The translations under genes were made by a program, and so were the position numbers. A stretch of DNA of 64,000 nt from Candidatus Dormiibacterota bacterium (GTDB taxonomy: Bacteria; Chloroflexota; Limnocylindria; Limnocylindrales; CSP1-4), in the NCBI GenBank assembly GCA_035631615.1, contig DASQIK010000027.1:63446-127445 (forward strand), written 5' to 3'. Shown one piece after another: positions 8,967-38,143 of this stretch (within the stretch, counting starts at the first letter, position 1; every line of letters begins with the position of its first letter). Below the pieces are notes generated by a model. That model was not told the DNA's origin, did no database searches, and saw nothing but the letters and a program-made list of their open reading frames with translations.

Positions 8967-9154
8967 GGTCGACGGACTCGGCGGGCAGCACCCGTGCGTC
9001 CCGTCGATGACGGTGGCGCCGACGCAGGACAGGCGAGTCGGAACGGCCGGACCTTCTGCCTACACGATCGGGTCCGATGGTCGGGCTGTTGCCAGAACGC
9101 CCCCGCCCATAAGGTCCAGTGAGCGTCGAGCGCACACCGGTCGGCGGCTTCAAC

Positions 9155-9232
9155 CGAAATAGCACACCCGTCGCGAGGCGGGGCCGCAAAGCCACGGGAC
9201 TCCCCGAGGAGTTAGCCGGGTTGCCGAAAGGG
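9155..9232 (+). ncRNA. candidate c-di-GMP-I (GEMM) riboswitch in the 5' leader of the GH16-like gene
   Basis: 'CCGAAAUAGCACACCCGUCGCGAGGCGGGGCCGCAAAGCCACGGGACUCCCCGAGGAGUUAGCCGGGUUGCCGAAAGGGAG' has a P1 hairpin CCCGUC-GCGA-GGCGGG (GNRA loop), then 'GCCGCAAAGCC' and a 3' 'AGCCGGGUUGCCGA'. These parallel Vibrio Vc2 'GGGCAAACC...GAAA...GGGACGCAAAGCC...AGCGGGGUUACCGA'. A near-identical copy sits at 29005..29085. Confidence 0.55.
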
Positions 9233-9240: not shown

Positions 9241-10638
9241 ATGCCCTCTCTGCGCGCGCTTGCGCGGCCATTTCAAGGTCCGCGCCACGGTTCGACTCGA
9301 CACTCCCGGTTCGGCCGCGGCGCGGGGCGAATCCTCGCGGTCGCCGGCATGGCCCTGCTCGTGAGCCCGCTCACACTCCACGGCCCGCTGACCCCGACCC
9401 TGGCAATGACGCCCGGTTCGGCCGCCGCGGGAGTCCGGGTCCTGGTCACCGGGACGAACTTCGCGCAGCGAAGACTGGTCCAGCTCACCTGGGATGGATC
9501 GACCGGCGGCATGCCGACCCTGAACACCGGGCGAGATGGCCAGTTCGCCGCGACCATGATCGTCCCGTACACCGCGCCGGGGGCGCATACCCTTGGCGCG
9601 TTGATGGTCCAGACCAGGTCCGCCTTGCCAAGCACCGTGAGCCCCGCCTCCCAGATCGTCCTGGCGTCCGAGACGTTCACGATCACGACCGACGAGGCGT
9701 CTGCGGATCCAAGCGTGCTGCCCACCATCGACCCTGGCCCGACACCGGACCCGACCTTCATGCCGGATCCCACGGCGGCGCCGCTTCCCACGCCGACGCT
9801 CGAGCCGACCGTTACGCCCGCTCCAGATCCGACCGCCCGCCCGACGGCCGCGCCGACCGCCAGGCCGGCGCCCAAGCCCACCCCGCGTCCCACCCCCCGG
9901 CCCACGCCCAGGCCGACGCCTCCGCCGAGTGGCGGCGTCCCGCCGATGCCAGCGGCCGACCTCCTGCGGAAGAACTTCGCGGATGGGTCCCTGTGGCCGT
10001 TCCGCGTCGTCGACTACCCGAATGACCATCCGACCGACCCGATGTCCTGGGCGTGCGATTACAAGACCGACAGCAGCGTGGTCTCGGTCCATGATGGCTA
10101 CCTCCACCTGCGGGCATACCCGAAGGCCGGCGGCCGCTGGAACTGTGGCTTCGTCTCGACGGGCATGGACGCGAACGGACACGGCGCGTCGTTCAGCGTC
10201 AGGTACGGCTACGTGCAGTTCGCCGCCAAGATCAATGTCGGTCACGCAACGTGGCAGGCCCCGCTGTGGCTCCTCAACACGGTCACGGGCTGGAACGCGG
10301 CCGAGATCGACGTGGCCGAGGTCATCGGCGGCCGGCTGACGTACAACCTCCACGGCACGACCGAGCGCCGGGTGGGCTCGGTGGCGCCCCCGAGCAACAT
10401 GGCCTCCGCGTGGCACGTGTTCGGCGTTGCCAAGACGAGCAACCACATCACGTTCGTCATGGACGGCAGGGTCATCGGCCGCTGGTACGGCTCGATGACC
10501 GACCCGATGGCGCTGCTCGCCGACAGCAAGGTCGGCATCAAGTGGGACAACCTCTACCCGAACAGCACCACCCCGTCGCCCACGTGGGTCAAGCTCGCGT
10601 GGATCACCGTCTCCTCGCACATCCCCAGCGGCCTCTAG
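9241..10638 (+). CDS. secreted GH16-like (concanavalin-like glucanase) protein with Pro/Thr-rich linker
   Basis: RBS AAAGGGAG precedes the ATG. The N-terminal hydrophobic segment 'ILAVAGMALLVSPL' is followed by a ~70 aa PT-rich linker (PTPDPT...PRPTPRPTPRPTPPP). The C-terminal domain carries 'WQAPLWLLNTVTGWNAAEIDVAEV' (GH16 ExDxxE-like). It is paralogous to 29094..30428. Confidence 0.7.
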   Translation: MPSLRALARPFQGPRHGSTRHSRFGRGAGRILAVAGMALLVSPLTLHGPLTPTLAMTPGSAAAGVRVLVTGTNFAQRRLVQLTWDGSTGGMPTLNTGRDGQFAATMIVPYTAPGAHTLGALMVQTRSALPSTVSPASQIVLASETFTITTDEASADPSVLPTIDPGPTPDPTFMPDPTAAPLPTPTLEPTVTPAPDPTARPTAAPTARPAPKPTPRPTPRPTPRPTPPPSGGVPPMPAADLLRKNFADGSLWPFRVVDYPNDHPTDPMSWACDYKTDSSVVSVHDGYLHLRAYPKAGGRWNCGFVSTGMDANGHGASFSVRYGYVQFAAKINVGHATWQAPLWLLNTVTGWNAAEIDVAEVIGGRLTYNLHGTTERRVGSVAPPSNMASAWHVFGVAKTSNHITFVMDGRVIGRWYGSMTDPMALLADSKVGIKWDNLYPNSTTPSPTWVKLAWITVSSHIPSGL

Positions 10639-10769: not shown

Positions 10770-12248
10770 TTGGCCATTGATCGACATTCGGGCGCCCGTC
10801 TGCTCCTCCTCGTGCTGTCGGTGGCAGGCCTCGCCGGTCTCGCCCTCGCTGCGCGACCACGCAAGGATTCCGTGCCGGTTCTCACCCCGCTCCCGTCCAT
10901 CTCGGTGCCTGCGCCTGCAGCGAGCGATCTATTCGTCTCAACGTCGGGGCACGACGGGTCGGCCGGCTCAGCCTCCGATCCCCTTGCATCCCTCCAGGCC
11001 GCGGTCGATCGCGTCGCGCCTGGAAGCACCGTGTGGGTAGAGCCCGGCAGGTACCAGGGCTTCGGGCTCCGTCGCGGCGGTCTCTCGGGCGCGCCCATCA
11101 CCATCGCGGCCACGACCCCGGGGACCGCCGTCATCACGCCCTTCGGTGTCGACTCCACGATCGACCTCGTCGGCGCTTCACACGTCGATCTGATCAACCT
11201 CGTCGTCGAGGGGCCGACATCCGGAATGCTGAGCGCCGTCTACCTCGAACGGAGCAGCGCGATCACGATCGAGGGCTGCACCCTCCGGGGGACGACCGGC
11301 GGTTTCGGCGTCCAGGTCCGCTTCTCGTCGGACGTGACCATCCGCGACAACGACATCCTCCACAACGCGATGGGAGTGCGCCTGTATGGCGAGGGTGACC
11401 CGAGTTCCGTGCATGACGTCCTGATCGAGGACAACTGGATCCACGACAGCGATTCGATGGTCGTGAACGATGCTGCTCCGAACAACGACTACGGCGCAAA
11501 TGGGATCGTCTGGCACAAGGTCACCGGGACCACTATCGCCCGCGGGAACAAGCTCTGGGCGAACCGCGCGGTGAGCCACGACTACGGATACGACGGCGGT
11601 GCCTTCGAGATCTGGGGCTCGAGCAACGCCCAGATCGTCAGCAACGTCGCCTGGGACAACGAAAACGTGATGGAGACCGGGTCGGATGGGCCGGACTGCA
11701 CGAACATCTCGTTTCTCAGAAACGTGGCGTACGCGCCCAGCTTCGGCGTCGGCCTGATCCTTCGGTGTGCCCGTGACTCGCTCATCGCAAACAACGTCCT
11801 CGACCACCTTCAGTCGTACGCGTTCGAACTCAGTGATCGCTCTGGTGGAAATCAGTTCGCGACATCGATCGACGGCCTCAGGATCGAGAACAACATCGTG
11901 GTCGGATCGCTCGCGTACGCCATTCGCAACGCCCTCCCGGCGACCGTCGTCCTCGACTACAACGTCCTACCGCCTCGACGGGCCATCGCGTCGTTCCCGA
12001 ACGGTGTGGTCAGCGTCTCGGTCGCGGCGTTCACGCGCGCCACTGGCCAGGATTCCCACTCGATCGCGGTCGATCCGGCATTCGTGGCCGCCTCCGCGCA
12101 CGACTACCGGCTTCGGCCCGGATCGCCGGCGATCGACCGCGGCACCGTGGTGATCCCGGGAGAAACGTTCCTCGGTGCCGCGCCGGACATCGGGGCCTAC
12201 GAGGGCGCCGCTGCGCTCCCCTCTCCGTCGCCCGCCGGATCCGGCTGA
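10770..12248 (+). CDS. secreted right-handed parallel beta-helix repeat protein (pectate-lyase/NosD-like fold)
   Basis: TTG start after RBS GAGAAGGA; signal peptide 'ARLLLLVLSVAGLAGLALAA'. Repeated 'VxIxDNxIxxN' beta-helix turns ('VTIRDNDILHN', 'VLIEDNWIHDS', 'LRIENNIVVGS'). Confidence 0.65.
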   Translation: MAIDRHSGARLLLLVLSVAGLAGLALAARPRKDSVPVLTPLPSISVPAPAASDLFVSTSGHDGSAGSASDPLASLQAAVDRVAPGSTVWVEPGRYQGFGLRRGGLSGAPITIAATTPGTAVITPFGVDSTIDLVGASHVDLINLVVEGPTSGMLSAVYLERSSAITIEGCTLRGTTGGFGVQVRFSSDVTIRDNDILHNAMGVRLYGEGDPSSVHDVLIEDNWIHDSDSMVVNDAAPNNDYGANGIVWHKVTGTTIARGNKLWANRAVSHDYGYDGGAFEIWGSSNAQIVSNVAWDNENVMETGSDGPDCTNISFLRNVAYAPSFGVGLILRCARDSLIANNVLDHLQSYAFELSDRSGGNQFATSIDGLRIENNIVVGSLAYAIRNALPATVVLDYNVLPPRRAIASFPNGVVSVSVAAFTRATGQDSHSIAVDPAFVAASAHDYRLRPGSPAIDRGTVVIPGETFLGAAPDIGAYEGAAALPSPSPAGSG

Positions 12249-13483
12249 CGCAGGCGTCCGACGGCGCGAGCCGCAAGGGTCCGGATCGTCTGCACGACCA
12301 TGCGGGCGGCGGGCCTTGGGTCATCGCGCGCGACCCACGCTCGCTCCTCGACGCCCCGGAGGCTCGAGAGGTAGCCGCGAAGCCCGAGCTCTCCGCGCCA
12401 AGCGAGCTTGATGGAGGTCGCGAGATCCTGGTCCTCCACCAGCCAGCGCCGGCCTTCGGGAGCGCGGCCGCCGGGCACGGACTGACCGGTCAGGTCCAGG
12501 TACAGCGCCCGCACGACATCGAGGCCGTTCCGCGCGACGAACAGCCGGAATGAGCTGCCGATGCGCGGATTGACGTCGAGCAACTTGTAGCGGCCGTCGC
12601 GCGCGTCGTACCGGAAGCCGAGGTCGACCATGCCGCGGTAGCCGAGATCACCGAGAAACCGCACCGCGAGCTCACGGACCACCTCGTTGCTCACCACCAC
12701 GCCGAGCGTCGTCGCGCCGGTGCGTGGCGGCGCCTGGCGGATCTTCTGGCCGACGATTCCGATCGGGCTCGCACCATTCCGATCGAAGTAGCCGTTGAAC
12801 ATCCAGATGGAGCGCGCATCGCCGGGGATGAACTCCTGAAGCATGAGATTCGGCTCGCCGGGGTCTTCGATGCGGTCGTACAGCTCGATCGCCTCGTTCC
12901 GGGTGTGGGCGACGGCCACGCTCACCGCCCGGGGGCGGCGCCGCAGGATTCGCGGATCCATGCTCTTCAGGACGATCGGGTAGCCGAGCTCCTCGGCGCC
13001 GGCCAGCATCTCGTCGCGTGAGGTCGGAAACCGCGCCGCCGGCGTTGGGATGCCGGCCCGCAGGCACAGGTTGTGCAGGCGGCCTTTGTCGCTGAGCTCG
13101 AGCGGCAGGCCAGCGGGCTGATCCGGGAGCAGGAACTCCCGTGGCAGCTGGGCGAAGTTGTCGGCCACGAACAGGGCGGCCACGTCGTCAGCGGCAATCA
13201 GCAGCGCTCGCGTGCCGATCCGGGCGGCGACGCGCCGGAGCAGCTCAAGGATCGCCACGTCCCCGGCCTCCGGCGGCGGCATCCCCGTCCGGCTTGCCAC
13301 GTACCGGCTGCGGGCGGGCGGAGCGTCCGGGTCTCGCGTCGCCAAGTGCACGCGAACCCCGAGCCGGCCAAGCGAGCGGGCGATCGCGAGCGTGCCGTGC
13401 TGGAAGGGGTCGCTGGTGAGCTTGAACACGGCGACCGGCGTACCGGCATCGACGAGTGGGCTGGTGAGACGAGCGTCGATCAA
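12197..13483 (-). CDS. ATP-grasp domain ligase
   Basis: Pre-ATP-grasp 'AVFKLTSDPFQHGTLAIARSLGRLGVRVHLA', then 'YPIVLKSMDPRI...LMLQEFIPG...' and 'YRGMVDLGFRYDARDGRYKLLDVNPRIGSSF' (ATP-grasp C-terminal motif). TTG start 2 nt after the comB stop. Confidence 0.7.
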   Translation of the reverse strand: MIDARLTSPLVDAGTPVAVFKLTSDPFQHGTLAIARSLGRLGVRVHLATRDPDAPPARSRYVASRTGMPPPEAGDVAILELLRRVAARIGTRALLIAADDVAALFVADNFAQLPREFLLPDQPAGLPLELSDKGRLHNLCLRAGIPTPAARFPTSRDEMLAGAEELGYPIVLKSMDPRILRRRPRAVSVAVAHTRNEAIELYDRIEDPGEPNLMLQEFIPGDARSIWMFNGYFDRNGASPIGIVGQKIRQAPPRTGATTLGVVVSNEVVRELAVRFLGDLGYRGMVDLGFRYDARDGRYKLLDVNPRIGSSFRLFVARNGLDVVRALYLDLTGQSVPGGRAPEGRRWLVEDQDLATSIKLAWRGELGLRGYLSSLRGVEERAWVARDDPRPAARMVVQTIRTLAARAVGRLRQPDPAGDGEGSAAAPS

Positions 13484-13485
13484 GT

Positions 13486-14205
13486 TCAGCTGGTGGCGCC
13501 CGTGCGCACGACCACCTCGCTGTTGCGCATCTCATAGGTGGTCGTGACGTCGGTCACGTGCTCGAGGATGAACGACAGGTCGTCGAGCTGCCCGGAGTCG
13601 CGCAGGTAGCGCGCGCTCTTGCCCTCCGTGATCGCGGCTGCCGGCGCGTCGCGCCAGGTGTCCACCACTCGGCGCGTCTCGTCATCGGCGTCATAGCCGG
13701 CGTCGATGAGCGGGCCGGCGATCCAGGCGCAGCAGAGCTGGTCCTCCTCGCGGAACTCGCCGCGTGTGCCGGCGCCGAGGAGCACGACCTCCGGGGGTCG
13801 GGCTCGCACGAGTTCCGCGGCCTGCGCCTCCCAGTTCCGCAGGCAGGCAAGGAACGTCGTCGGATGGGCCGCCGCCGCGGTCCGGAGGAGGCGCGTCCCC
13901 GAAGTCGACAGGAGAATCGCCGGGCGACTCGGGTCGCCGGCGCGAGCGATCGCCGCGGGGCTGTTGTTCAGGTCGAAGCCGTAGGGCATGTTCCCGCCGA
14001 GCTCCCCGACCAGCAGCGGGTGCTCGAGGCGAGCCTGGAGCTCTGCGACCTCGTCCAGGTTCGCGGCCACGAAGCACCGACGCCCACCCGCGACCGCGGT
14101 GATCGCCGTGGTCGTGGAGCGGATGACGTCGACGCCGACCACGACCGCGTCACGCGCGTAGCCGCGGAGCTCCGCGAGGTAGACCTCGATCCTGACGGAC
14201 GGCAT
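13486..14205 (-). CDS. comB: 2-phosphosulfolactate phosphatase (ComB family)
   Basis: 'VVVGVDVIRSTTTAITAVAGG' matches the ComB signature (VIDVLRAS/TT). Length 239 aa; sits 3 nt downstream of comA. Confidence 0.75.
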   Translation of the reverse strand: MPSVRIEVYLAELRGYARDAVVVGVDVIRSTTTAITAVAGGRRCFVAANLDEVAELQARLEHPLLVGELGGNMPYGFDLNNSPAAIARAGDPSRPAILLSTSGTRLLRTAAAAHPTTFLACLRNWEAQAAELVRARPPEVVLLGAGTRGEFREEDQLCCAWIAGPLIDAGYDADDETRRVVDTWRDAPAAAITEGKSARYLRDSGQLDDLSFILEHVTDVTTTYEMRNSEVVVRTGATS

Positions 14206-14208
14206 CCC

Positions 14209-15024
14209 TCAGGCGTCGCTCGGGCTGGGGGCAGGCGGCCGCAGGTTCGCGTGGCCGAACGCATCCGAGTGCAGCCCGCGCCGGTAGATCTCCACCCGCA
14301 GGAGCTCCTCGAGGCGCACGTTGCACAGCCGCACCTCCGGACCGAAGTGATTGAGCAGCGCGAACTGGCTGGGCTTGTTCGGGGCCTCGAACATCGTGAT
14401 CCCGAACCCGAACGCCTCGACGAAGCGCTCGGCCAGCGCCGTGTTGAGGTTGCCGTCCATGTCGAACAAGCCGACGCCCTTTGCGCTCTCGCGCGCCTCC
14501 ACGACCAGCTCCTTCGCGCCCGCATCCAACCAGCGTCTGCCCTGCTCGACCAGCTCCTCGGCGACGTCGTTTGTGAACGCGCCGCCGTGCTTCTTGCCGA
14601 GCTCGAACTGGAAGTCGAGGCCACGCGCCGCGGCCAGATGCGCCACCGTCTCGGGTGCGAGCCGCATGTCAGTGAAGCCCTCGCCACACTCGAACCTGTC
14701 GAACCCGATCTCGGCGCAGAGGTCCAGATATGCCTCGAGCTGGCCCTGTGCGACGGCCACCTCGAAGGGGCCACCACCGGTGACGGTGGGCACGCCGTGC
14801 TTCTTTGCCGCCGCGACTTTCGCCCGGGTTGCGCCCTCGTCAGCAATGATCCAGCACGCCATCGAGACCTTCAGGATCGAGATCAGGTGGTGGCTCTGCG
14901 CCAGATGGGATTCGAGGGTGACCGGGTCATAGCCCGGGTCGAACGGGCTTGTCGATGGCTCGAGGCTGCGCACGCCGATCGCGCGCAGGTAGCTGGCGAG
15001 GTAGCCATGGGCATCAGCCGTCAT
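14209..15024 (-). CDS. comA: (2R)-phospho-3-sulfolactate synthase (ComA family)
   Basis: 'AKELVVEARESAKGVGLFDMDGNLN...GITMFEAPNKPSQFALLNHFGPEVRLCNVRLEELLRVEIYRRGLHSDAFG' aligns with M. jannaschii ComA 'ADYVIIEGRESGKGIGLFDKEGKV...[48 protein letters not shown]'. Confidence 0.8.
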   Translation of the reverse strand: MTADAHGYLASYLRAIGVRSLEPSTSPFDPGYDPVTLESHLAQSHHLISILKVSMACWIIADEGATRAKVAAAKKHGVPTVTGGGPFEVAVAQGQLEAYLDLCAEIGFDRFECGEGFTDMRLAPETVAHLAAARGLDFQFELGKKHGGAFTNDVAEELVEQGRRWLDAGAKELVVEARESAKGVGLFDMDGNLNTALAERFVEAFGFGITMFEAPNKPSQFALLNHFGPEVRLCNVRLEELLRVEIYRRGLHSDAFGHANLRPPAPSPSDA

Positions 15025-16310
15025 TCCTCCCGTCCCTCCTGAACCCGCGGGCGTCGAGCCTGGATCTGTGGCCGAATGATTTCACGGTAGATGACCGGCA
15101 GCATCGGCAGCACCTCGAGGCCCATCGCGACTGCCACGCCGATCCCGAGGCCGCGGAGGCCGCCGGCGGTCGCGCCGAGGTATCCGCCGAGGATCTCGAT
15201 CAGGGCCCCAAGCGCAACGAGTCGAGTCGCGGACGAGAGGTGGCCTCGAACGCGCTGGATGGTGATGTACTGGCCCTTGAATACGCCGCCGATGACGGTC
15301 AGCGGCAGGGCGAAGAGGGCTTCCGTGCCCGCGTCCGAGTAGCCGCGTCCGAAGATTCGGAGGACGATCGGCCCGAGGATCCACAGCGCCACGGCACTGC
15401 CGACGCCGGTCACGATCGAGAGCCGGAGCGTCAGCCAGCCCCACCTGGCAAGGGATCCGGGCTCGCGCGACGCTTCCGCAAACAGGATCCACGTGAATGC
15501 CACCTGGACGAAGGCGGCGATGCCGACGAGCTGCCACGCCAGGAAGAAGCCGGCATTCGAGCTGGCCGAGAGCGCGGTGACTGCCACGATCGGCATCGCC
15601 CAGCCCGGAACCTGGATCGCGAGGTTCAGCATGTGATGCTGCAGCGACGCGAGCCACTGCTGGCCGAGAAACTCCCAGTGGAACGGGTAGGCGGCTCGCA
15701 GGTTGCCACGACGCCCCGCGATCAGGGCGAGGACGACGAGCGAGAGCCCCGTCGAGATCACCCACGGGGCGATCATGCCGAGCCCGGCCGAGGCGAGCGC
15801 GAACGACGCAAACATTGCGAGCAACAGGAGGCGCAGCAGGGCCGCGAGCACGTTCCGGAAGAGTTGCAGCCCACTGCGCAGGAGACCGATCAGCGCCTGG
15901 TCGAGGACGAGACTGGCGGCAGTCACGCTCGCGCCGAGGGTCACGAGGACGATGGTGATGAGCGACTCGCGAAGCGGCGCGAAGTCCACCGACAGCAGCG
16001 GCGCGATCAGGACGAATCCCAGGCCCAGGACCCCGCCGACGGCGGCCGAAGCGACGAGCGACGTCGTGACGATCGCGATCTCGCGCCCCGGATGTGCCGG
16101 AATCTCACGGATGAGCAGCGTGCCCAGGCCCATCGCCCCGACCGCACCGACCAGCGACATGCCCGAGGTGACGGCGGACGCGAAGCCGACATCGGACTGG
16201 CTGAAGGTCCGACTCGCGATCAACCAGAAGACGAACCCGACGCCAGCCGTGAGCAGCTGGCTGAGGACCAGCGACGTGCTCGATGCGAGAAAGTCACGGA
16301 CCCGCGGCAT
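15021..16310 (-). CDS. polysaccharide biosynthesis protein, Wzx-like flippase (MOP superfamily)
   Basis: 429 aa polytopic membrane protein from Met 'MPRVRDFLASS...'; the ORF-finder N-terminal extension was rejected. Its stop overlaps the comA ATG (ATGA). Confidence 0.7.
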   Translation of the reverse strand: MPRVRDFLASSTSLVLSQLLTAGVGFVFWLIASRTFSQSDVGFASAVTSGMSLVGAVGAMGLGTLLIREIPAHPGREIAIVTTSLVASAAVGGVLGLGFVLIAPLLSVDFAPLRESLITIVLVTLGASVTAASLVLDQALIGLLRSGLQLFRNVLAALLRLLLLAMFASFALASAGLGMIAPWVISTGLSLVVLALIAGRRGNLRAAYPFHWEFLGQQWLASLQHHMLNLAIQVPGWAMPIVAVTALSASSNAGFFLAWQLVGIAAFVQVAFTWILFAEASREPGSLARWGWLTLRLSIVTGVGSAVALWILGPIVLRIFGRGYSDAGTEALFALPLTVIGGVFKGQYITIQRVRGHLSSATRLVALGALIEILGGYLGATAGGLRGLGIGVAVAMGLEVLPMLPVIYREIIRPQIQARRPRVQEGREE

Positions 16311-17074
16311 CAGGCGCTCCCTGTGCCGGTCGAGTACGTGACCCGCCGGTACACGACGTCCGGCTGCGAGGCGACGTAGACGAGGACCTCGAGTGGCGGT
16401 CCGCCCCGGGCTGGCTGGGGCACGAGCGTGGTCCATCGCTCCCCCATCGCGACCGTGATCGCAGGGAACGACCTCTGGATGATACCGCCGACGGTCACGT
16501 CCACCCGGTACGTCGTCGTCGCGAGCTCCTGGTTGTCGAGACCGATCTTGACCATCCCCGACCCTGCCGGTACGACCCACAGGGCCGAGAACGGCTCCGA
16601 CGGCTGCTTGACACCGGCGCGTGCGATGAGCAGCGAGACCATCATCAGGACGCATGCGGCGACCATCGCAAGCGCCTGCCCGTTCGTCGGCCTGACCCAC
16701 GACTCGCGACGGAGCGGCGGCAGACCGCGACGGGCAAACACGGCGATGGCCAGCAGGAGGACGGCGACGAGCCCGAGCCAGGCGGTCCGGCTGAGGCCGC
16801 CGGGGATCAGGTTGAGGACGAGCCCACCGATCGCGATGCAACCGAGGCTCAGCGCCGAAGCGACGAGGAACAGGTCCAACCGCCGCAGGGACTCGACCGG
16901 GCGGCGGGTGATCGCAAGGACGATCCCCGGGAGAATCAGCACGACCAGCGCCACGGAGGCCAGCACGAACGCGATGATCCCGGCGATCGACGCCGCGAGG
17001 ATCACGGCGAGTGCGACCGCGCCGGTCAGCGCCAGCACCACCAGCGCGGTGCCGGGGGGCGTTCTACCGAGCAC
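16310..17074 (-). CDS. membrane protein (DUF1616-like: N-terminal TM helices plus C-terminal beta-rich domain)
   Basis: Four predicted TM helices followed by a soluble ~90 aa domain. Its stop overlaps the flippase start (TGATG). Confidence 0.5.
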   Translation of the reverse strand: MLGRTPPGTALVVLALTGAVALAVILAASIAGIIAFVLASVALVVLILPGIVLAITRRPVESLRRLDLFLVASALSLGCIAIGGLVLNLIPGGLSRTAWLGLVAVLLLAIAVFARRGLPPLRRESWVRPTNGQALAMVAACVLMMVSLLIARAGVKQPSEPFSALWVVPAGSGMVKIGLDNQELATTTYRVDVTVGGIIQRSFPAITVAMGERWTTLVPQPARGGPPLEVLVYVASQPDVVYRRVTYSTGTGSA

Positions 17075-18980
17075 CGGCGAGCCGCCTCACGTCGTACAGC
17101 TGGATGTCGCCGCTGTCATAGATGCGATCGACCCGCGGGACGCTGTCCCACTTGGCAAGCACAGTCGCGAGGATCGGCGTGGCGTGCCGTCGCTCGAAGA
17201 TCTCGCCCTCCTCGTAGTAGAACGGCACCAGGGGGAGACTCGAAGCCAATCGACGGTCGATCAGGATGTAGTCGATGCGCGCCGCCTTGATTCGGGCGAT
17301 CTCGAGCGGCCCGACGACCGGCGATAGGAAGATCTGCCAGGTTTCGACGTGGCCCGATGTGTAGAAGACCACGTCGGCCTGCCCGTACGAACCCAACAGG
17401 AGCCGATTGACCCGATCCCCGGCAACCCGCCGATTCGGGCCAAGGACGGCAAGCGTCCAGCCGGCCGCGGCGATGCTCTCGTTGTCGATCGACCGCGAAT
17501 CCGCGCCGACGAGGTATGGCCCCGGGAACCTCGTGGCCGGCGCCGTGCCGATCACCGCGCCGCCAAGGATGGCGAGGCACACGATGGCCACGAACGCGCC
17601 CGTCCACACCTGTTGCGACCGGGCCGGCGAGCCACGGATGGTCCACCGAACCGGATCGCGGGTGCCGCGGACGCGCCCCGCGATCGTCTCGGCCGTTGCG
17701 ATCACGCCGAGCGCGACGACGAACGAGAGCCCGAGGAACACGAAGCCGAGGCTTCGTCCGGCGGCCTCGCTGCCCGTAGGCGTGAGTCGCGCGACCAGGC
17801 TCAGGGGATAGGCGAGGGCAAGCAGCCCGAGCAGCAGGGCGAGGGAGTTGTCTCGATACCGCCGGATGAGCGGTGCCAGGCCGATCGGGATCGCCAGGGT
17901 CAGGAGCGCCGCGGTCCCCAGGCCGACCGCCCGCTCCCACACCGGCGCCACCTGGCCCGTCGCCGAGACGAAGGGCGTGCGGCCAACGCCCGTCGTCACC
18001 AGCCGTATGGCCTCGTTGATGGCTGCGGCAATCGGTGGCGCAAGGTAGCCCACGACGACCGGGCCCGCAAACACCAGCCAGAGGGCGGTGGCGCTGAGCA
18101 TGAGGGCGGTCGAGAAGATGATCCCCCATCGTCGGTACCGATCTCTTCGATGCACGATCCGGTTGACGACGATCCAGCCGACCAGGAGGGCAGCCGCCCC
18201 GTAGGTCGACACATGGTGGGTGATCGCCAGCGTCGCCGAGCTCGCCGCCAGCGCTGCGGCAAGGAGGACTCCGCCTCCGCGCTGAGCGCGGATGGCCGTG
18301 ATCAGGAGCACGACCGGGACGAGGGGAAGCGCGAGTGTCTCGTAGGAAAAGCCCGAGTCGAAGAACGTGAAGTTCGGGTTGAGCATGTAGATGGCGGTCG
18401 CCAGTCCGGCGACGCGCTCGGACGACGATGCTTCCCGATACAGCGCGAACAGGCCGATCGCGAACAATATTCTCGCGAACGCGAGCACGACGGCTGCGGC
18501 CGTGAACGGATCGACCCCGCTGATCTGGACCACCGCCGCCGTGACGATCTCGAGGCCCGGGAAGACCGGGCTGACGGGGAGGAGCGGGTTCGGCGTAAAG
18601 AGGTGGCCGGTGCTCAGAATGTCGGTGATCGTGCGGAGGTGGAGCAGCGCGTCGTAGTTCGTGAAGCCGGCGGGCGAGCTGACGAAGTGCACGACCTCGA
18701 GCACGAGACCGAGCACGAGCACGAGACCGACACGCTCCGCGGTTCCGGGTGCCTTCGCAGTCAGGCGCACCGTGATCGGGGCAGCGATCAAGAGGAGCCC
18801 GATCCAGAACAGCGGCTCGGCGTACTGGAACCCGGCGCCGACGAGGGCGAAGGACGAGGAGACAGCGACCACGCCGGCCGCGGCGACCAGCGACAGCGCC
18901 GGAAGCCAGCCCCAGCCGCGCGCGCGGTACGCCGCGGGATCGGGGCGCCCGAGCGGCGAATTCGAGCGCAGGTCTACCAC
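17064..18980 (-). CDS. large polytopic membrane protein, putative GT-C-type glycosyltransferase
   Basis: 638 aa with at least 12 hydrophobic segments across the N-terminal ~450 aa and a ~170 aa C-terminal soluble domain, as in GT-C/oligosaccharyltransferase-like enzymes. Overlaps the downstream gene by 11 nt. Confidence 0.5.
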   Translation of the reverse strand: MVDLRSNSPLGRPDPAAYRARGWGWLPALSLVAAAGVVAVSSSFALVGAGFQYAEPLFWIGLLLIAAPITVRLTAKAPGTAERVGLVLVLGLVLEVVHFVSSPAGFTNYDALLHLRTITDILSTGHLFTPNPLLPVSPVFPGLEIVTAAVVQISGVDPFTAAAVVLAFARILFAIGLFALYREASSSERVAGLATAIYMLNPNFTFFDSGFSYETLALPLVPVVLLITAIRAQRGGGVLLAAALAASSATLAITHHVSTYGAAALLVGWIVVNRIVHRRDRYRRWGIIFSTALMLSATALWLVFAGPVVVGYLAPPIAAAINEAIRLVTTGVGRTPFVSATGQVAPVWERAVGLGTAALLTLAIPIGLAPLIRRYRDNSLALLLGLLALAYPLSLVARLTPTGSEAAGRSLGFVFLGLSFVVALGVIATAETIAGRVRGTRDPVRWTIRGSPARSQQVWTGAFVAIVCLAILGGAVIGTAPATRFPGPYLVGADSRSIDNESIAAAGWTLAVLGPNRRVAGDRVNRLLLGSYGQADVVFYTSGHVETWQIFLSPVVGPLEIARIKAARIDYILIDRRLASSLPLVPFYYEEGEIFERRHATPILATVLAKWDSVPRVDRIYDSGDIQLYDVRRLAGAR

Positions 18981-19507
18981 AGTCGTCGTTCTCCGCGAGT
19001 GCCGGCTCGTCCGTCGACGCTGTGACCTCGGACGGAGATCAGTGGGCCTCGCGCGCGTCCAGCCCGGAGGCTCGGTTACCCGGCTCGAAAGACTCCTGCG
19101 TCGGGTTCATGCTCGCGGCGGATGATAGCAAGGGGGCAATCCGACACGCCGGGTCAGTGGTCGGGTAGGCCTATCCCGTGCGATCGCTCGCGGCCCGGGC
19201 CCCCGCGGGGGGAGTCTCGAGTCGCGCGCTGATCGACCTGGGCAGCGTCACGGGCCGACGCCGGCGTTGATCCGTCGAGTCCCCGAACATACTTCGGTAG
19301 GCCGACGGATAGCCAACGCGCCGGGCGACTCGGTAGAGCTCCGTGGCGTCCTCGATCGAACAGGCGATCTGCTTCGCCAATCGCTCGATGTTCGCGCGGT
19401 CGCCGGACAGGAACGCCGCAGGATGTCTGATGGCTTCAACGAGCGAGGACGACCGAGGAAGACGCACGCGACTCTCCCGAGGCTGACCGACCGCGACCGA
19501 TGTTCGA

Positions 19508-20722
19508 ATGAACGTACACCCGGACGGGAACGCGTCGACCTCCCGATATGACTATTGGCGTTCAGACGAAGGTGCGGGCCGGCGCGGTGAAGGGCGACTG
19601 CCGGCGCTCGCCACTCGTGCCATCCGTACACTCGACCTCGTGCTCATCTCGATACTCTCGGCCCAGCGGACCGCGATGCGCGCGCTCCGCCTGCTCGGCG
19701 ACTGGGCAGGATGGTCGAAGGAGACGTACCTCTACCAGCGGGTGAACGAGTACCGTCTGATCTGGGAGCGCGTCGCCATGGCGGAGGGAGGCACGTTCAC
19801 GGAGCTCGCGTCGGACCTCTGGCAGATCGACGTCGGGCACCATCGAGTCCGTGTCCTGAACTACCAGCTTGAATTCGACAATCCTGTGACCCTTGGCCTT
19901 GCGGGTCGCAAGCGGATCGTCCACGGTCTCCTGGGTGCAGCCGGCGTGTCCGTGCCCGAACATCTCGCGTTCACCCTGGAGACGATGGATGCCGCGCGAG
20001 ACTTCGTGGCGAACCATCCGCTTGGGTGCGTCATCAAACCATCCGGTGGATACGGTGGCAGGGGGGTCACCACACATGTCCAGCTGCCCGGCGAGGTCCG
20101 GTCTGCATCCCTGCGGGCGTCGGTCCACGATCCGGAGCTCCTCGTCGAGGCGATGATCCCCGGTGAATCGTTCCGCCTGCTCGTCCTCGAGGGCAAGGTG
20201 GTCGACGCCGTCTACCGGCGCGGGTCGCGCCTGACGGGCGACGGCGTGTCGACGATTCGGGAGCTGCTCGGCGCCGAAACCCCGGTGGACGGGCGCCGAC
20301 GCGATCCCGGGCTCGACGACGACCGGGACGTGAGCTTTACCCTGGTCGCACAGGGCCTCACCCTCGAATCCCGGCTCGACGCAGGCCGGGTCGTGCTGTA
20401 CCGGAGCACTGACCAGGCTCGGAAGCGCTACGCCGAGGTGCGGACCGTGTACACGGATTCGGCGCGGGATCTGATCTGCGAGTCGATCCGGTCCGACGCC
20501 GAGGCTGCCGCCCGTGTGATCGGGTCCGACTTCCTCGGCGTTGACGTCATCACGCTGGATCCCTCGGTCCCGCTCAGTGAGAGTGGCGGTGTGATCAACG
20601 AGGTGAACACCACGCCGGCGTTGCACCACCACTACGACATGACGCGCGAGCCGTATCCCGAGGCAGCCGTGCTCGCCATCGAGGCCCTCCTGAGGCGGCC
20701 TTCCGCCCTCGTCGATTCGTGA
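19508..20722 (+). CDS. ATP-grasp domain protein (cyanophycin-synthetase/RimK-like ligase)
   Basis: 'CVIKPSGGYGGRGVTTHV' (ATP-grasp Gly-rich loop), 'LLVEAMIPGESFRLLVLEGKVV', and 'GVDVITLDPSVPLSESGGVINEVNTTPAL'. The leader has locally lower GC. Confidence 0.6.
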   Translation: MNVHPDGNASTSRYDYWRSDEGAGRRGEGRLPALATRAIRTLDLVLISILSAQRTAMRALRLLGDWAGWSKETYLYQRVNEYRLIWERVAMAEGGTFTELASDLWQIDVGHHRVRVLNYQLEFDNPVTLGLAGRKRIVHGLLGAAGVSVPEHLAFTLETMDAARDFVANHPLGCVIKPSGGYGGRGVTTHVQLPGEVRSASLRASVHDPELLVEAMIPGESFRLLVLEGKVVDAVYRRGSRLTGDGVSTIRELLGAETPVDGRRRDPGLDDDRDVSFTLVAQGLTLESRLDAGRVVLYRSTDQARKRYAEVRTVYTDSARDLICESIRSDAEAAARVIGSDFLGVDVITLDPSVPLSESGGVINEVNTTPALHHHYDMTREPYPEAAVLAIEALLRRPSALVDS

Positions 20723-20729: not shown

Positions 20730-21908
20730 ATGCGCCCTGAACGAGCGGCGATTGCACCGCACCGCCTACGCGTCGCAGCTGTCGGCGACGTGATGCTGGG
20801 CCGTGAGGTGGGCGTCCATTTCGCATTGTCGCCCGGCGACTTTGCGATGCCGGATATCCGGGCGGCCTTCGCCGGAGCAGACGTCGTGCTGGCCAATCTC
20901 GAGAACCCGGTTGCGAGCACTGGCCGACCCGACCCGGCGCAGGACCCGCACGTCACGTTTCGGGCGGCACCCGAGACCCTGTCCGTGCTCAAGGGGATCG
21001 GCGTGAACGTCGTGGCGCTGGGCAACAACCACATGCTCGACTACGGCGAGGCAGCCCTCATCGAGACGCTCGAGCGGCTGGACGCCGCCGGCATCCGGCA
21101 TGTTGGGGCCGGCCGCGACTACGAAGAGGCGAACGCCCCGGTGCTCCTTGAAGTTCGCGGCCGAAGGATCGCGATCCTTTCCTATGCGTTCATCTACTCC
21201 GCGAACACACGAATGGCTTCACGGACGAGGTCGGGCATCAGCGATCATCGCCTCGACCGGATCCTGCGGCGCATCAGAGGCCTGGTTGCCGAGGGTTGCT
21301 GCGTCCTCGTCACGGCGCACTGGGGGTTCGAATACCGGTTCCATCCACTGCCGTACCAGATGCGCCAGGCACGCGCGATGATCGACGCCGGCGCACGTAT
21401 CGTGCTCGGACACGGGCCCCATATCCCGCAGGGCATCGAAGCGTACAGGGGACGGGACATCGTCTACAGCCTGGGGAACTTCATCTTCGACGAGCCGTAT
21501 ACGTACGCGAAGCGGAGCTTCATCTACCACGCGGAGATCGACGATGACGGGGCGACCATGAACCGACGGATGACGCCGGTCCTGCTCCCGCACCATGTCC
21601 CGTCCCTGATGGCGCACGACGACGCTGAGCGCATGCGGGCGCTCGTCGAAGCACTCAGTCGACGGTACGGGCGAAGGAGCAGTGCGTTCTGGCGGGACCA
21701 CAGCACGCGCTATCTCAACGAGCTCGGCGGACGTGTCGTGCGCAACCGATCGCTCAAGTACCTTCGGGTGCCGCCGATGGGGTTCTACCGGGACGTCGGG
21801 GCGACGGGCATCCTACGCATCGTGCAACGAGCGGTGACGGTTCTGCGACCTGGTGGAACACGTCGGGAATCAGGTGGCTCTCGCCGGCGACCGGAGGGAA
21901 TCTCGTGA
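20730..21908 (+). CDS. CapA/PgsA family protein (poly-gamma-glutamate synthesis-associated metallophosphoesterase fold, PGA_cap)
   Basis: 'LRVAAVGDVMLGREV...VVLANLENP...GVNVVALGNNHMLDYG...ILSYAF...VTAHWGFEY' matches the CapA family pattern. Confidence 0.75.
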   Translation: MRPERAAIAPHRLRVAAVGDVMLGREVGVHFALSPGDFAMPDIRAAFAGADVVLANLENPVASTGRPDPAQDPHVTFRAAPETLSVLKGIGVNVVALGNNHMLDYGEAALIETLERLDAAGIRHVGAGRDYEEANAPVLLEVRGRRIAILSYAFIYSANTRMASRTRSGISDHRLDRILRRIRGLVAEGCCVLVTAHWGFEYRFHPLPYQMRQARAMIDAGARIVLGHGPHIPQGIEAYRGRDIVYSLGNFIFDEPYTYAKRSFIYHAEIDDDGATMNRRMTPVLLPHHVPSLMAHDDAERMRALVEALSRRYGRRSSAFWRDHSTRYLNELGGRVVRNRSLKYLRVPPMGFYRDVGATGILRIVQRAVTVLRPGGTRRESGGSRRRPEGIS

Positions 21909-22987
21909 CCCGGCAAGGCAGCGTGCTGTCGGCCTGGCTACGGGCCACGCGGCACGTGCCCGCGACCTCGATGGCGCGGTTCGCCCGGCCGCAGCCACCC
22001 CGTTTCCCGGCGATCGACGCCCACACGCACCTGAACTCCGTGCACGCCTACGGCTGGCGGGGTCGACCCGTCGGCGACGTGATCCGGGCACTCGATCGCG
22101 CGGGCGTTCAAGGCCTCGTGAACCTCGACGGCGGTCACGGCGAGGCCCTGTCAGCGGAGATCGCCCGAGTCCAGACGCCGAATCCGGATCGGATCGTGGT
22201 CTTCGCCGGGGTCGACCCGGCCGCCTGGAAGCACGACGCACGCTTTGGCGCGATGGAGGCGGCACGTCTCGAGGACTCGGTTCGTCGCGGCGCGAGGGGG
22301 CTGAAGATCTGGAAGGACGTCGGCCTCCATGCGCGCGATCCCGACGGCCGCCTCGTCGCGCTCGATGACGAGCGTCTCGCGCCGATCTGGGAGACCGCGG
22401 GCGCCCTGGGCGTCCCGGTCCTCATTCACGTCGCCGACCCGAAGGCGTTCTTCGAGCGCCTGGACCGCAACAACGAGCGCTGGGACGAGCTGCGCCGCCA
22501 CCCGGATTGGCATTACTCCCCGATCCGGACGGCGCCGGATGGTCCCGGCTTCCCCAGCCACGACGAGCTGATCGGCCAGTTCGAGCGGATGGTGCAGCGC
22601 CACCCCGGGACGAGGTTCATCGGCGCCCACCTGGCCTCGAGCGGCGAGGATCTCGCCCGCTTGTCGGACATGCTCCGGAGGCTGCCAAACCTGTCGGTCG
22701 ACATCGCGGCGCGAATCAATGAGCTCGGGCGACAGCCCGCGGAGGCGAGGTCGTTCATCGAGACGTTCCAGGATCGCGTCCTGCTCGGCACGGACGCGGG
22801 GCCAGATCCGCGCTGGTATCCGATCTACTTCCGGTTCCTCGAAACCGCCGCGCACGACATGAACTACTCCGTCGGCTACCGCGCACCCCAGGGCAACTGG
22901 CGGATCGACGGGTTGAGCCTGTCCGACCGCGCGCTCGTGAAGGTGTATGCCGAAAACGCCTTGCGACTGATCCGATTCGGCCCGTAG
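21905..22987 (+). CDS. amidohydrolase family (TIM-barrel metal-dependent hydrolase, amidohydrolase_2-like)
   Basis: 'FPAIDAHTHL' metal-binding HxH near the N-terminus, plus 'VLIHVADP' and 'GTDAGPD'. GTG at 21905 overlaps the CapA stop; the alternative ATG at 21971 is more likely. Confidence 0.7.
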   Translation: MTRQGSVLSAWLRATRHVPATSMARFARPQPPRFPAIDAHTHLNSVHAYGWRGRPVGDVIRALDRAGVQGLVNLDGGHGEALSAEIARVQTPNPDRIVVFAGVDPAAWKHDARFGAMEAARLEDSVRRGARGLKIWKDVGLHARDPDGRLVALDDERLAPIWETAGALGVPVLIHVADPKAFFERLDRNNERWDELRRHPDWHYSPIRTAPDGPGFPSHDELIGQFERMVQRHPGTRFIGAHLASSGEDLARLSDMLRRLPNLSVDIAARINELGRQPAEARSFIETFQDRVLLGTDAGPDPRWYPIYFRFLETAAHDMNYSVGYRAPQGNWRIDGLSLSDRALVKVYAENALRLIRFGP

Positions 22988-24094
22988 GTGACGGCCACAT
23001 CGCGCCCAAGGCTGCTCTTCGTCAGCGCGCGATTCACGCCCGATGTCGGCGGCATCGAGACGCACGTCGCCGAGGTGGCGCCGCGCCTCGTCGAGATGGG
23101 CTTCGACGTCACGATCCTGACCACGGACCGGACCGGCACGCGAGCGTCAAGCGAGAAGACCAACGGGGTCGAGGTCGTCCGCGTCCCGGCATACCCGAGG
23201 TCGCGCGACTACTACCTCGCCCCGGCGCTGGTGGGCGAGATCCGACGCCACCCGTCCGACCTCATGCACCTGCAGGGCTACCACACCCTGGTGGCGCCCA
23301 TCGCGATGGCCGCCGCAGGGTCGCGCGGGCTCCCGTATGTCGTGTCGTTCCACAGCGGCGGACATCCCTCGAAGCTGCGCAACCGGGCCCGGGCGCTCCA
23401 GCGCCTCCTCCTCCGACCGGGCCTTGTCAGAGCCGACCGTCTGATCGCCGTATCCCGCTTCGAGCTGGACCTCTTTCGGCGGGATCTCCGGCTGTCTGCA
23501 TCACGGTTCAAGCTCATCAGGAACGGGAGCTCGCTGCCGGCCCCGCTGACGACGCGGCGCCCCGGCGCCGGACTGGTCGTATCGATCGGGCGGCTGGAGC
23601 GATACAAGGGCCACCGGCGCGTCGTCGAGGCATGGGGCGCCGTGCTCCGTGAGGTGCCACACGCGCGCCTGCGGATCATCGGCAGCGGGCCCGACGAGGG
23701 TCCCATCCGCGCGCTGATCAGGTCGTCAGGGATGGAGGATCGGATCACGCTGGAGTCGATTCCCGGGGATGATCGCCAGGCGATCGCGGACGCGCTGGGC
23801 GAGGCGAACCTGGTCGTGCTCTTGAGCGACTACGAGGCCCATCCGGTCGCGGTCATGGAGGCGCTCGCGGTCGCGACCCCCGTGCTCGTCGCTCGCACCA
23901 GCGGACTCACGGAGCTCGTCGAGGACGGCCTCGCGGCGGGCATCGATCCGTCGGCGTCGATGGCCCAGGTCGCAGCCGGCGTCGTCGCGGAGCTTCGCCG
24001 GCCGCGCGTGGTCGCGACACCCCTGCCGACGTGGGACGACTGTGCCGTCCAGCTGCGCGACCTCTATCACGAGATCCTCGAGGGCCGGCGGTGA
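22988..24094 (+). CDS. glycosyltransferase family 4 (GT-B fold)
   Basis: 'LLFVSARFTPDVGGIETHVAEV', with C-terminal 'VLLSDYEAHPVAVMEALAVATPVLV' (EX7E-like). Confidence 0.75.
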   Translation: MTATSRPRLLFVSARFTPDVGGIETHVAEVAPRLVEMGFDVTILTTDRTGTRASSEKTNGVEVVRVPAYPRSRDYYLAPALVGEIRRHPSDLMHLQGYHTLVAPIAMAAAGSRGLPYVVSFHSGGHPSKLRNRARALQRLLLRPGLVRADRLIAVSRFELDLFRRDLRLSASRFKLIRNGSSLPAPLTTRRPGAGLVVSIGRLERYKGHRRVVEAWGAVLREVPHARLRIIGSGPDEGPIRALIRSSGMEDRITLESIPGDDRQAIADALGEANLVVLLSDYEAHPVAVMEALAVATPVLVARTSGLTELVEDGLAAGIDPSASMAQVAAGVVAELRRPRVVATPLPTWDDCAVQLRDLYHEILEGRR

Positions 24095-25638: not shown

Positions 25639-25841
25639 AACGGTTCCGGGAGCATCGCACCCGGTTGCATTGATCGATTCGCCCGTCGCCGACGCACTGA
25701 ACGTGCGTCACCACGATCGCATGTGCCCGCAGTCGCAGTTCGTTTCGGCGACCCTGGAGGTGCGGGCATCTCAACCCAGCGCGGACTCTGAGGAAGCAAT
25801 CCATTGGCACTGAATCTCGAAAATAATAAGGAAGCGTCAGG

Positions 25842-26685
25842 AGTGCGATCGGCCGGCCGCCGTCACCACGCCGTGGCGCCCGAGCATCGCATCCGGGACC
25901 GCGCCCTCGTCGAGTCGACCGCATCCTCCGGGGGCGACCACGCCGACGCCGGCCGCGTCGCGGTCGGGATCAGCGTGGTGATCCCCGCCCGGAACGAGGC
26001 CGACAACATCGCATGGGTCCTGCGCCGTATCCCGAGCTATGTCGACGAGGTCGTGATCGTCGACGGGAGGTCCACCGACGCCACGATCGCCGTGGCCCGG
26101 ATGGTCCGCCCCGACGTCGTTGTCGTGACCGACAACGGCCTCGGCAAGGGCGACGCGATGCGCGTCGGCGCCAAGATGGCTCGCGGCTCGATCGTCGTGA
26201 TGATGGACGCCGACGGGAGCATGGACCCAGCCGAGATCGAGCGGTTCGTGGAGCCCCTGGCCCAGGACTTCGATTTCGTGAAAGGTTCGCGCTTCCTCGC
26301 AGGCGGCGGAACGAGCGATATGACGACCCTGCGAAAGGCCGGGCACTGGGCCCTGCTGACCCTCGCCAACGTGATGTACGGCAGCCGGTGGTCTGACCTG
26401 TGCTACGGGTTCTGCGCCTTCCGCCGGTCCGCCCTCGACGAGCTGGCGCTCGATGCGGACGGGTTCGAGATCGAGACCCAGATGGTTGTCCGCTCGGCGC
26501 GCATCCAGCTGCGAATCACCGAGGTGCCGAGCTATGAGTATCCCCGTAGGTTCGGGAACTCGCAGCTGAACACGTTTCGTGACGGCTGGCGCGTCCTGTG
26601 CACGATCTTCCAGGAGCGGGTGAAGCGTCACCCCGTGGCGGCCATCGACGAACCAGGGATGGCGGACGAGCTCATCGATGCCTGA
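25842..26685 (+). CDS. glycosyltransferase family 2 (polyprenyl-phosphate sugar synthase-like)
   Basis: 'ISVVIPARNEADNI...VVIVDGRSTDAT...VMMDADGSMDP' (GT2 DxD). An AT-rich 'AAAATAATAAGGAAG' RBS region lies upstream; exact start (GTG 25842 or downstream) is uncertain. Confidence 0.7.
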
Positions 26686-29085: not shown

Positions 29086-29093
29086 GTGTTGAC

Positions 29094-35773: not shown

Positions 35774-35776
35774 CCG

Positions 35777-38113: not shown

Positions 38114-38143
38114 CCACCACCAGGAGGAGGAGGAGGCCCGGAC

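Follow-up and report, generated by a model that had tools for sequence, protein, structure and literature searches.

Sulfolactate synthesis is known from the coenzyme M (CoM) pathway of methanogens (ComA, ComB, ComC, and ComDE), in which the first two steps convert phosphoenolpyruvate and sulfite to phosphosulfolactate and then to sulfolactate. It is also known from spores of Bacillus subtilis, in which the bacterial ComB/ComA pair encoded by yitC and yitD makes sulfolactate without CoM and the product accumulates as a free solute. Here, a related pair was analyzed in a 64-kb stretch of DNA ("the window"; ~70% G+C) on contig DASQIK010000027.1 of a Candidatus Dormiibacterota genome. The window encodes homologues of ComA and ComB followed by an ATP-grasp ligase, and these three genes close an operon that also encodes a Wzx-type flippase and a GT-C-like membrane protein (GT, glycosyltransferase). 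The pair is like the CoM pathway in its two steps and like yitC/yitD in its bacterial setting, whereas the Bacillus system is without ligase, flippase, and GT partners. Unlike the CoM pathway, the pair is joined with an ATP-grasp in glycan operons, and no genes for ComC (Ldh_2), ComDE (sulfopyruvate decarboxylase), or Suy-type sulfolactate lyases were found among the scanned open reading frames (ORFs) of the window or in annotated orthologous loci, and a context of CoM biosynthesis or sulfolactate catabolism was rejected on this basis.

Based on comparative gene content, we propose with a probability of about 0.55 that these genes form a glycan-decoration cassette in an exopolysaccharide or cell-envelope polysaccharide locus, through which sulfolactate would be made, activated, and attached to a glycan unit prior to export. 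The original prediction that sulfolactate is ligated to a lipid-linked glycan or envelope polymer is supported, and strengthened by the conservation of the gene trio across phyla, with the chemistry itself (sulfolactate, acceptor, and bond) read from comparative genomics only.

Six minus-strand ORFs, the coordinates of which were re-checked, occupy positions 12197-18980 of the window (Table 1). According to a reading of the sequence, the stop of the GT-C-like gene and the GTG start of the downstream gene for a small membrane protein overlap by 11 nucleotides (nt; 17064-17074), followed by a TGATG junction with wzx (1-nt overlap at 16310), an ATGA junction between wzx and comA (4-nt overlap), a TGA-ggg-ATG junction between comA and comB (3-nt gap), and a TGA-ac-TTG junction between comB and the ATP-grasp gene (2-nt gap). 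The TTG start of the ATP-grasp is consistent with the N-termini of its homologues. For Wzx, the start given by the longest ORF (TTG at 16841; 606 amino acids, aa) was replaced by the ATG at 16310, which overlaps the upstream stop. For five of the six gene models, a metagenome-assembled genome (MAG) of Candidatus Dormibacteraeota has NCBI proteins with the identical sequence. An exact look-up returned HYK95033-HYK95036 for ComB, ComA, Wzx, and the small membrane protein, while the ligase (100% identity and coverage) and the GT-C protein have 100%-identity NCBI matches from one contig. The six genes are thus translationally coupled as originally predicted, but the unit to which they belong is larger and includes a divergent operon and glycanase genes controlled by cyclic di-GMP (c-di-GMP) riboswitches.

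The ComA and ComB assignments hold in profile searches. ComA matches PF02679 (E 4e-45; 154.7 bits against a cut-off of 25.2) over profile positions 16-243 of 243, and its alignment with M. jannaschii ComA (1qwg; E 6e-29) is full-length, pairing residues 27-258 with 18-250. The two proteins share the charged motifs E-x-G/S-x-G, GKK, E-x-RE, and EAP-x-K (aligned pairs ECGEG/EISDG, ELGKK/EVGKK, EARES/EGRES, and EAPNK/EAPQK), and Bacillus YitD (1u83) is a weaker match than 1qwg (E 1e-16). ComB matches PF04029 (E 1e-33; 116.4 bits against a cut-off of 26.4) and its PDB relatives are 2z0j, 1vr0, and 2yyv. By their profile scores, both proteins are best described as family members and not as certified equivalogs, since ComA reaches 146.2 bits against the cut-off of 280 for TIGR03849 (the NCBIfam equivalog arch_ComA) and ComB reaches 77.1 against 330 for its best equivalog match and 65.1 against 175 for TIGR00298. 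The shortfall of ComA from its equivalog cut-off, and the identity of its clade to the archaeal enzyme (~35%) compared with that among its relatives across phyla (63-90%), could also fit a ComA that acts with another nucleophile or enol-phosphate, in which case the attached acid would be a different 3-substituted lactate lacking a sulfonate. This explanation is given very little weight here, as the alignment to the solved ComA is full-length with the acidic and lysine motifs retained, the partner ComB is specific to 2-phospho-hydroxyacids, and the cassette in locus L083 lies beside five sulfotransferase-domain proteins.

A more distant ComA (52-53% identical) was observed in four Solibacteraceae/Bryobacteraceae MAGs (L074-L077) within a Wzy/GT4/DegT cluster, with a CE4-like gene lying upstream; three of the four loci also have a GH123-like gene downstream. 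As neither ComB nor the ATP-grasp accompanies it, these loci point to a variant use of ComA.

The third cassette protein is an ATP-grasp ligase, as had been predicted, with a CPSase_L_D2 score above the Pfam cut-off (26.8 bits against 19.8) and a three-domain ATP-grasp fold in its AlphaFold2 (AF2) model (predicted local distance difference test, pLDDT, of 90.6). The nearest folds are the L-amino-acid ligases 3vot and 4wd3, PurK, and biotin carboxylases (Foldseek probability 1.0), and the residues K173, D303, N305, and R307 are invariant in 39 homologues. The protein is named "carboxylate--amine ligase" by NCBI, a PDB sequence search returned weak generic matches only, and a Pfam search gave no match to ATPgrasp_TupA at E <= 0.01. 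At E <= 1e-30 the family comprises 2,179 representatives at 50% identity. The members P0369, P0390, P0409, P0496, P0510, and P0497 include fusions to S-adenosylmethionine (SAM) methyltransferases (in both orders), to a FemAB-like GNAT, to Lys/Orn-monooxygenase-like flavoenzymes, and to two GT4 modules. The last of these fusion types, GT4-ATP-grasp-ATP-grasp-GT4, is encoded in an exosortase exopolysaccharide locus on a contig that stops 2.2 kb upstream, which limits what can be read of ComA/ComB there.

The remaining products of the operon are membrane proteins. The flippase is probably Wzx-like, with approximately 12 predicted transmembrane (TM) or hydrophobic segments and with orthologues that match PF01943 at E <= 1e-5, although the window protein itself scores slightly below the cut-off (26.1 against 28.2 bits). 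For the putative GT-C protein, the only Pfam signal is a weak DUF6541 match, while its AF2 model (pLDDT 86.6) upholds the predicted fold, as the top 27 Foldseek matches in the PDB are all GT-C enzymes (E 3e-9 to 5e-4; TM-score 0.45-0.56), namely STT3/AglB/PglB, AftA, DPY19, ArnT, AftD, and ALG9/12. As for the conserved acidic catalytic residue expected in the first external loop of GT-C enzymes, an alignment of 34 homologues shows no variation at E82, D110, and H114 and almost none at E111, these being positions in the alignment only. Judging from the model, the protein is probably a lipid-linked-glycan transferase or polymerase acting at the outer face of the membrane. Its family is mostly limited to Dormibacterota/Chloroflexota, with one member fused to GT4. 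The small membrane protein, which was originally labelled DUF1616-like (PF07760), does not bear this label out; the window protein has no match and only the orthologue in locus L001 has a faint one. It carries a sub-threshold N-terminal match to DUF6541, and its gene also follows immediately after that of the GT-C protein in L001, L005, and L085.

Conservation and genomic context of the cassette

The ComA-ComB-ATP-grasp trio is a fixed cassette across phyla. Among 77 loci retrieved with ComA, the full cassette, defined as all three genes within 3.5 kb, is present in 62. In the great majority of the 77, the same strand carries ComB 0.8 kb and the ATP-grasp 1.6 kb after ComA (cluster counts of 73, 71, and 60 loci), and ComB adjoins ComA in 71-77 of the loci. 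In a reciprocal test, 80 metagenome loci were retrieved with an ATP-grasp profile and the 50 with at least 1.7 kb of upstream sequence were assessed; 43 had both ComA and ComB, four had one of them, and three had neither. In two of these last three, the contig ends almost immediately downstream of the ligase. The carriers span more than ten phyla, with most in Acidobacteriota and others in Chloroflexia, Gemmatimonadota, Gaiellaceae, Solirubrobacterales, Acidimicrobiales, Ignavibacteria, Bacteroidota, Chlorobiaceae, Binataceae, Nitrospira, delta-proteobacteria, and one bin labelled Patescibacteria.

The reciprocal linkage indicates that this ATP-grasp family is dedicated to the ComA/ComB product and supports a ligase that uses it. 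If ComA/ComB instead supplied free sulfolactate only, as in Bacillus spores (where YitD is a solved ComA homologue) or as a precursor of CoM, the ATP-grasp would perform an unrelated glycan reaction such as the amidation of a uronic acid with an amino acid, and ATP-grasps that amidate glucuronate do exist in capsule loci (PMC11800379). We regard this as improbable, considering that the family occurs almost never without ComA/ComB (43 plus 4 of 50), that gene order and spacing are constant across phyla, that ComC/ComDE genes are found in none of the annotated contexts, and that the ligase has no ATPgrasp_TupA match.

The architecture of the window (Amidohydro_2, GT4, GT4, GT-C, small membrane protein, Wzx, ComA, ComB, and ligase) is found again in L001, L005/L002, and L085, and partly in L086, in which no GT-C gene was detected. 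In Bryobacterales and other Acidobacteriota, the cassette terminates a different cluster, with Wzx, Wzy, GT4, GNAT, a PglC-like Bac_transf (phosphoglycosyl transferase), DegT, a PglF-like dehydratase, an unknown protein, DegT, and a CE4-like protein that carries the motif HSxxH. In Gaiellaceae it lies beside Wzx, two GT4s, and a GT2, and in L083 it is found amid the five sulfotransferase-domain proteins, three GT4s, and one polysaccharide deacetylase. In at least three unrelated architectures for glycan assembly, the cassette lies at the 3' end in the same orientation as the other genes, and at least one recognisable glycan gene is present in 43 of the 62 full-cassette loci. Relative to ComA, recognisable glycan genes number 223 upstream and 14 downstream, an asymmetry that is the sole internal control for the density of glycan genes, with no random-locus background. 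As for the original prediction, the orthologous operons (L001, L005, L085, and L086) keep their glycan genes and in the annotated contexts never adjoin genes of CoM synthesis or sulfolactate catabolism.

Other partners recur as well. A SAM methyltransferase is common (21 of 62 genome loci), whether directly beside the ligase or as a fusion with it in either order, and homologues of LarA, a nickel-pincer 2-hydroxyacid racemase (Lar_N), are encoded in L005 (16809-18131), L083 (11360-13363), L085 (16345-17664), and other loci, with one fused to a sulfotransferase domain. The recurrence of LarA-like proteins fits a free 2-hydroxyacid intermediate, and they are predicted to act as sulfolactate racemases. 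Among 127 neighbours from 13 loci that the seed set of glycan genes had missed, a Pfam scan still identified GT4, Bac_transf, Polysacc_deac_1, FemAB-like GNAT, and AsnB-like genes.

These partners bear on whether the product is a polymer at all. A soluble sulfolactate conjugate, such as an N-sulfolactyl amino acid or a methylated osmolyte, signal, or metallophore, with glycan adjacency being incidental or regulatory, would account for the methyltransferase and LarA-like racemase as the commonest extra partners, for the L-amino-acid (dipeptide) ligases as the nearest structural relatives of the ATP-grasp, for the approximately one third of cassette loci with no recognisable glycan gene nearby, and for the flavoenzyme fusions, which resemble those of siderophore pathways. 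Such a conjugate is considered unlikely, though it deserves some weight. The window cassette is translationally coupled to Wzx and GT-C genes, the cassette is 3'-terminal in unrelated glycan architectures, glycan genes are in strong excess upstream, a GT4-ATP-grasp-GT4 fusion exists, and no exporter or nonribosomal peptide synthetase (NRPS)-type genes recur.

Possible route to a sulfolactyl-decorated glycan

Under the proposed glycan-decoration reading, ComA would convert sulfite and phosphoenolpyruvate to (2R)-phospho-3-sulfolactate and ComB would remove the phosphate to yield (R)-sulfolactate, in keeping with the established chemistry of the two families; a LarA-like enzyme, where present, may racemise the sulfolactate. 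The ATP-grasp ligase would then activate the carboxylate as an acyl phosphate and join sulfolactate to a building block of the glycan at the cytoplasmic face of the membrane, where ATP is available. The likeliest product is an N-(3-sulfolactyl) amide at a free amine of a sugar carried on a nucleotide or lipid. The coupled Wzx would export the decorated lipid-linked unit, and the GT-C-fold protein with its small partner may transfer or polymerise the flipped unit outside the membrane, as suggested by their coupling and fold. The backbone would be built by the divergent operon (two GT4s, two GT2s, Amidohydro_2, CapA-like protein, and second ATP-grasp), and secreted GH16 and beta-helix enzymes under c-di-GMP riboswitch control would remodel the polymer. 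In L083, the sulfotransferase-domain proteins surrounding the cassette suggest a sulfur-rich, anionic polymer.

An amide is favoured because the ligase resembles carboxylate-amine ligases, because aminotransferase or deacetylase partners occur in 28 of 64 cassette loci, and because amino sugars are known to vary in their N-acyl groups. In the window, the acceptor amine, if any, would come from de-N-acetylation, for which the Amidohydro_2 protein is a candidate. Alternatively, the 2-hydroxyl of sulfolactate could form an ester with an activated uronic or amino-acid carboxylate, by analogy with VanA-type D-Ala-D-Lac ligases, which form esters through a hydroxyl. The order of steps may also differ, with phosphosulfolactate ligated first and dephosphorylated later, in analogy to Cj1438/Cj1435 of C. 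jejuni (PMC11800379).

Several observations weigh against the glycan-decoration reading. Since ComA and ComB fall short of the equivalog cut-offs, the exact identity of their substrates is not guaranteed. With the seed set of glycan genes, 19 of the 62 full-cassette genome loci and many metagenome loci have no glycan gene within 8-10 kb, and among the 127 neighbours of the seed-missed loci, methyltransferases and sigma-54 regulators outnumber GTs. The methyltransferases and LarA-like proteins so often found as partners would fit a small-molecule pathway as well. An amine-generating partner (DegT, CE4-like, or Amidohydro_2) is recognisable in only 28 of 64 loci and no sugar aminotransferase was found in the window, which leaves an amide bond with an amino sugar uncertain. 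Moreover, every carrier found is an uncultured MAG, which would in turn explain how sulfolactyl chemistry escaped notice.

Divergent operon and flanking features

The cassette operon and the plus-strand operon that diverges from it are separated by a presumed promoter region (Table 1), although a scan of positions 11900-19700 returned no sigma-70 consensus promoter-like sites and terminator-like sites at a frequency not above that of shuffled sequence. At its other end, the ATP-grasp gene overlaps the convergent beta-helix gene by 52 nt at their 3' ends (12197-12248), and no terminator-like structure was detected at this overlap.

Table 1. Features of the cassette locus and its surroundings, in window coordinates.
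Feature	Position	Strand	Basis and remarks
c-di-GMP-I riboswitch upstream of GH16-like and beta-helix genes	9151-9228	+	RF01051, 62.4 bits (gathering score 35)
Secreted GH16-domain protein	9241-10638	+	Pfam; N-terminal hydrophobic segment
Right-handed beta-helix protein, convergent with ATP-grasp	10770-12248	+	Pfam; N-terminal hydrophobic segment
ATP-grasp carboxylate-amine-type ligase, 428 aa, cassette-specific; proposed sulfolactate ligation	12197-13483	-	CPSase_L_D2
ComB, 2-phosphosulfolactate phosphatase homologue, 239 aa	13486-14205	-	PF04029
ComA, (2R)-phospho-3-sulfolactate synthase homologue, 271 aa	14209-15024	-	PF02679
Wzx/MOP-type flippase, 429 aa, ~12 TM segments	15021-16310	-	PF01943 score and TM prediction
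Small membrane protein, 254 aa, ~4 TM and ~100-aa soluble C-terminus	16310-17074	-	TM prediction
GT-C-fold integral membrane protein, 638 aa, ~13 TM and C-terminal soluble domain	17064-18980	-	Model fold
Divergent intergenic region, presumed promoter region	18981-19507		527 nt between two operons; sequence reading
Second ATP-grasp, cyanophycin-synthetase G domain/RimK/GshAB-like, first gene of divergent operon	19508-20722	+	PDB 7txv/7lg5, E 2e-20
PGA_cap (CapA-like) protein	20730-21908	+	PF09587, E 1e-67; PDB 8gq9, E 1e-18; kept in L001
Amidohydro_2-family metal hydrolase	21905-22987	+	PF04909, E 9e-18
Two GT4 glycosyltransferases	22988-24094, 24031-25317	+	Pfam Glyco_transf_4/Glycos_transf_1
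Two GT2 glycosyltransferases	25804-26685, 26678-27670	+	PF00535, E 5e-25 and 3e-21
GH16-domain protein	27660-29264	-	
Second c-di-GMP-I riboswitch, upstream of second plus-strand GH16-like gene	29002-29082	+	RF01051, 49.8 bits
GH16-domain protein	29094-30428	+	Start-codon scan

The divergent operon begins with a second ATP-grasp. The two ATP-grasps are not paralogues, as BLASTP gave no meaningful similarity between them and the second resembles the G domain of cyanophycin synthetase. Homologues of this second type also adjoin the cassette in Gemmatimonadota, Ignavibacteria, and Gaiellaceae (L008, L026, L039, and L079), and this recurrence, together with its pairing with a CapA-like protein in the window, hints at additional amino-acid ligation on the same polymer. 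The Amidohydro_2 gene is kept together with the GT4 pair in L001, L005, L085, and L086, with the GT4 orthologues in L001 and L005 at 66-83% identity. PDB sequence searches with the Amidohydro_2 and PGA_cap proteins gave no functional lead other than CapA.

Three GH16-domain proteins are encoded around the cluster, of which the first and third are 72% identical over the C-terminal 226 aa. The first of them and the beta-helix protein, which is kept as a neighbour in L001, L005, and L088, are probably glycan-processing enzymes. The second riboswitch lies within the longest ORF at 28971-30428, so the GH16-like gene probably starts at the GTG at 29094. A plus-strand ORF at 27942-28877 was rejected as a shadow of the minus-strand GH16 gene. 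With riboswitches preceding two flanking GH16-like genes, the locus is tied to matrix biology under c-di-GMP control. Beyond the GH16 and beta-helix genes, an NAD-dependent sugar epimerase/dehydratase is encoded.

Elsewhere in the window, positions 35774-42362 (plus strand) encode an MMPL transporter followed by an ORF (at most 1260 aa) that carries PMT_2 and YkcB_C domains and is a second, unrelated GT-C-type glycosyltransferase. A sulfur-related mini-cluster at 43466-48470 (minus strand) encodes a Pyr_redox_2/FCSD-like flavoprotein, a DsrE-like protein, an ArsR regulator, DUF6390, and an EamA transporter, and may be linked to the handling of sulfite or sulfide.

Significance and comparison with described systems

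In the full-text literature searched, to which subscription journals are external, no report was found of sulfolactate on a glycan or of the ComA-ComB-ATP-grasp trio, in agreement with the original remark that no description of the modification was known. Papers that mention sulfolactate or phosphosulfolactate in SAR11, peatland Acidobacteria, and Bradyrhizobium deal with catabolism or transport and have no bearing here. The enzyme families are all known, and it is for their combination and for the predicted sulfolactyl-decorated polysaccharide that no description was found. More broadly, and with slightly less than even confidence, the trio may be a widespread, horizontally shared cassette that installs a carbon-bonded sulfonate (3-sulfolactyl, sometimes racemised and methylated) on exopolysaccharides made by Acidobacteriota, Chloroflexota/Dormibacterota, Actinomycetota, Gemmatimonadota, and others.

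If this is true, the cassette would add a new non-carbohydrate substituent to bacterial glycans and provide a route to anionic, sulfatase-resistant polymers that is independent of 3'-phosphoadenosine 5'-phosphosulfate (PAPS). It would also give a function to many bacterial "CoM-like" comA/comB annotations outside methanogens and predict a sulfolactate racemase of the LarA type. The soil sulfonate-sulfur pool is large and poorly explained, and the phyla that carry the cassette dominate soils, while the ligase family is large, uncharacterised, and dedicated. The sulfolactyl-decorated polymers would be a biological source of the sulfonate sulfur of soil organic matter that has so far gone unrecognised, offering a testable microbial origin for part of this pool.

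Parallels to the proposed reaction are found in other modification systems. In mycothiol biosynthesis, the deacetylase MshB and the ligase MshC exchange the N-acyl group on N-acetylglucosamine (GlcNAc) units. The CE4-like, Polysacc_deac_1, and Amidohydro_2 partners of the cassette suggest a similar scheme, in which a deacetylase would expose a sugar amine for subsequent ATP-dependent acylation. MshC is a Cys-tRNA-synthetase-like enzyme and not an ATP-grasp, unlike the window ligase, and no homology between them is claimed.

In the misaugamycin gene cluster, misNOPQ encode an acyl carrier protein (ACP) and an acyl-CoA ligase, together with a phosphosulfolactate synthase as well as a glyoxalase (PMC9136965). 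As in the cassette, a sulfonated acyl group that becomes part of a larger molecule, here 2-sulfoacetyl, is predicted to derive from the action of a ComA homologue (PMC9136965). Unlike the cassette, misaugamycin relies on activation by an adenylating ligase and ACP on an NRPS glycopeptide, has neither ComB nor an ATP-grasp, and belongs to the secondary metabolism of Streptomyces and not to glycan loci.

The capsule amidation of C. jejuni HS:2 involves the C-terminal ATP-grasp of Cj1438, Cj1437, and the phosphatase Cj1435 (PMC11800379). As proposed for the window, an ATP-grasp of a polysaccharide locus attaches a small non-sugar substituent supplied by adjacent enzymes that include a phosphatase (PMC11800379). 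In C. jejuni, the activated carboxylate is on the sugar (glucuronic acid) and the substituent is an amine (serinol phosphate or ethanolamine phosphate), whereas in the window the substituent would carry the carboxylate along with the sulfonate; moreover, the C. jejuni ligase is TupA-like, which the window ligase is not by Pfam match. The misaugamycin and C. jejuni modules are thus best viewed as resembling the ComA-ComB-ATP-grasp cassette in logic and not in homology.

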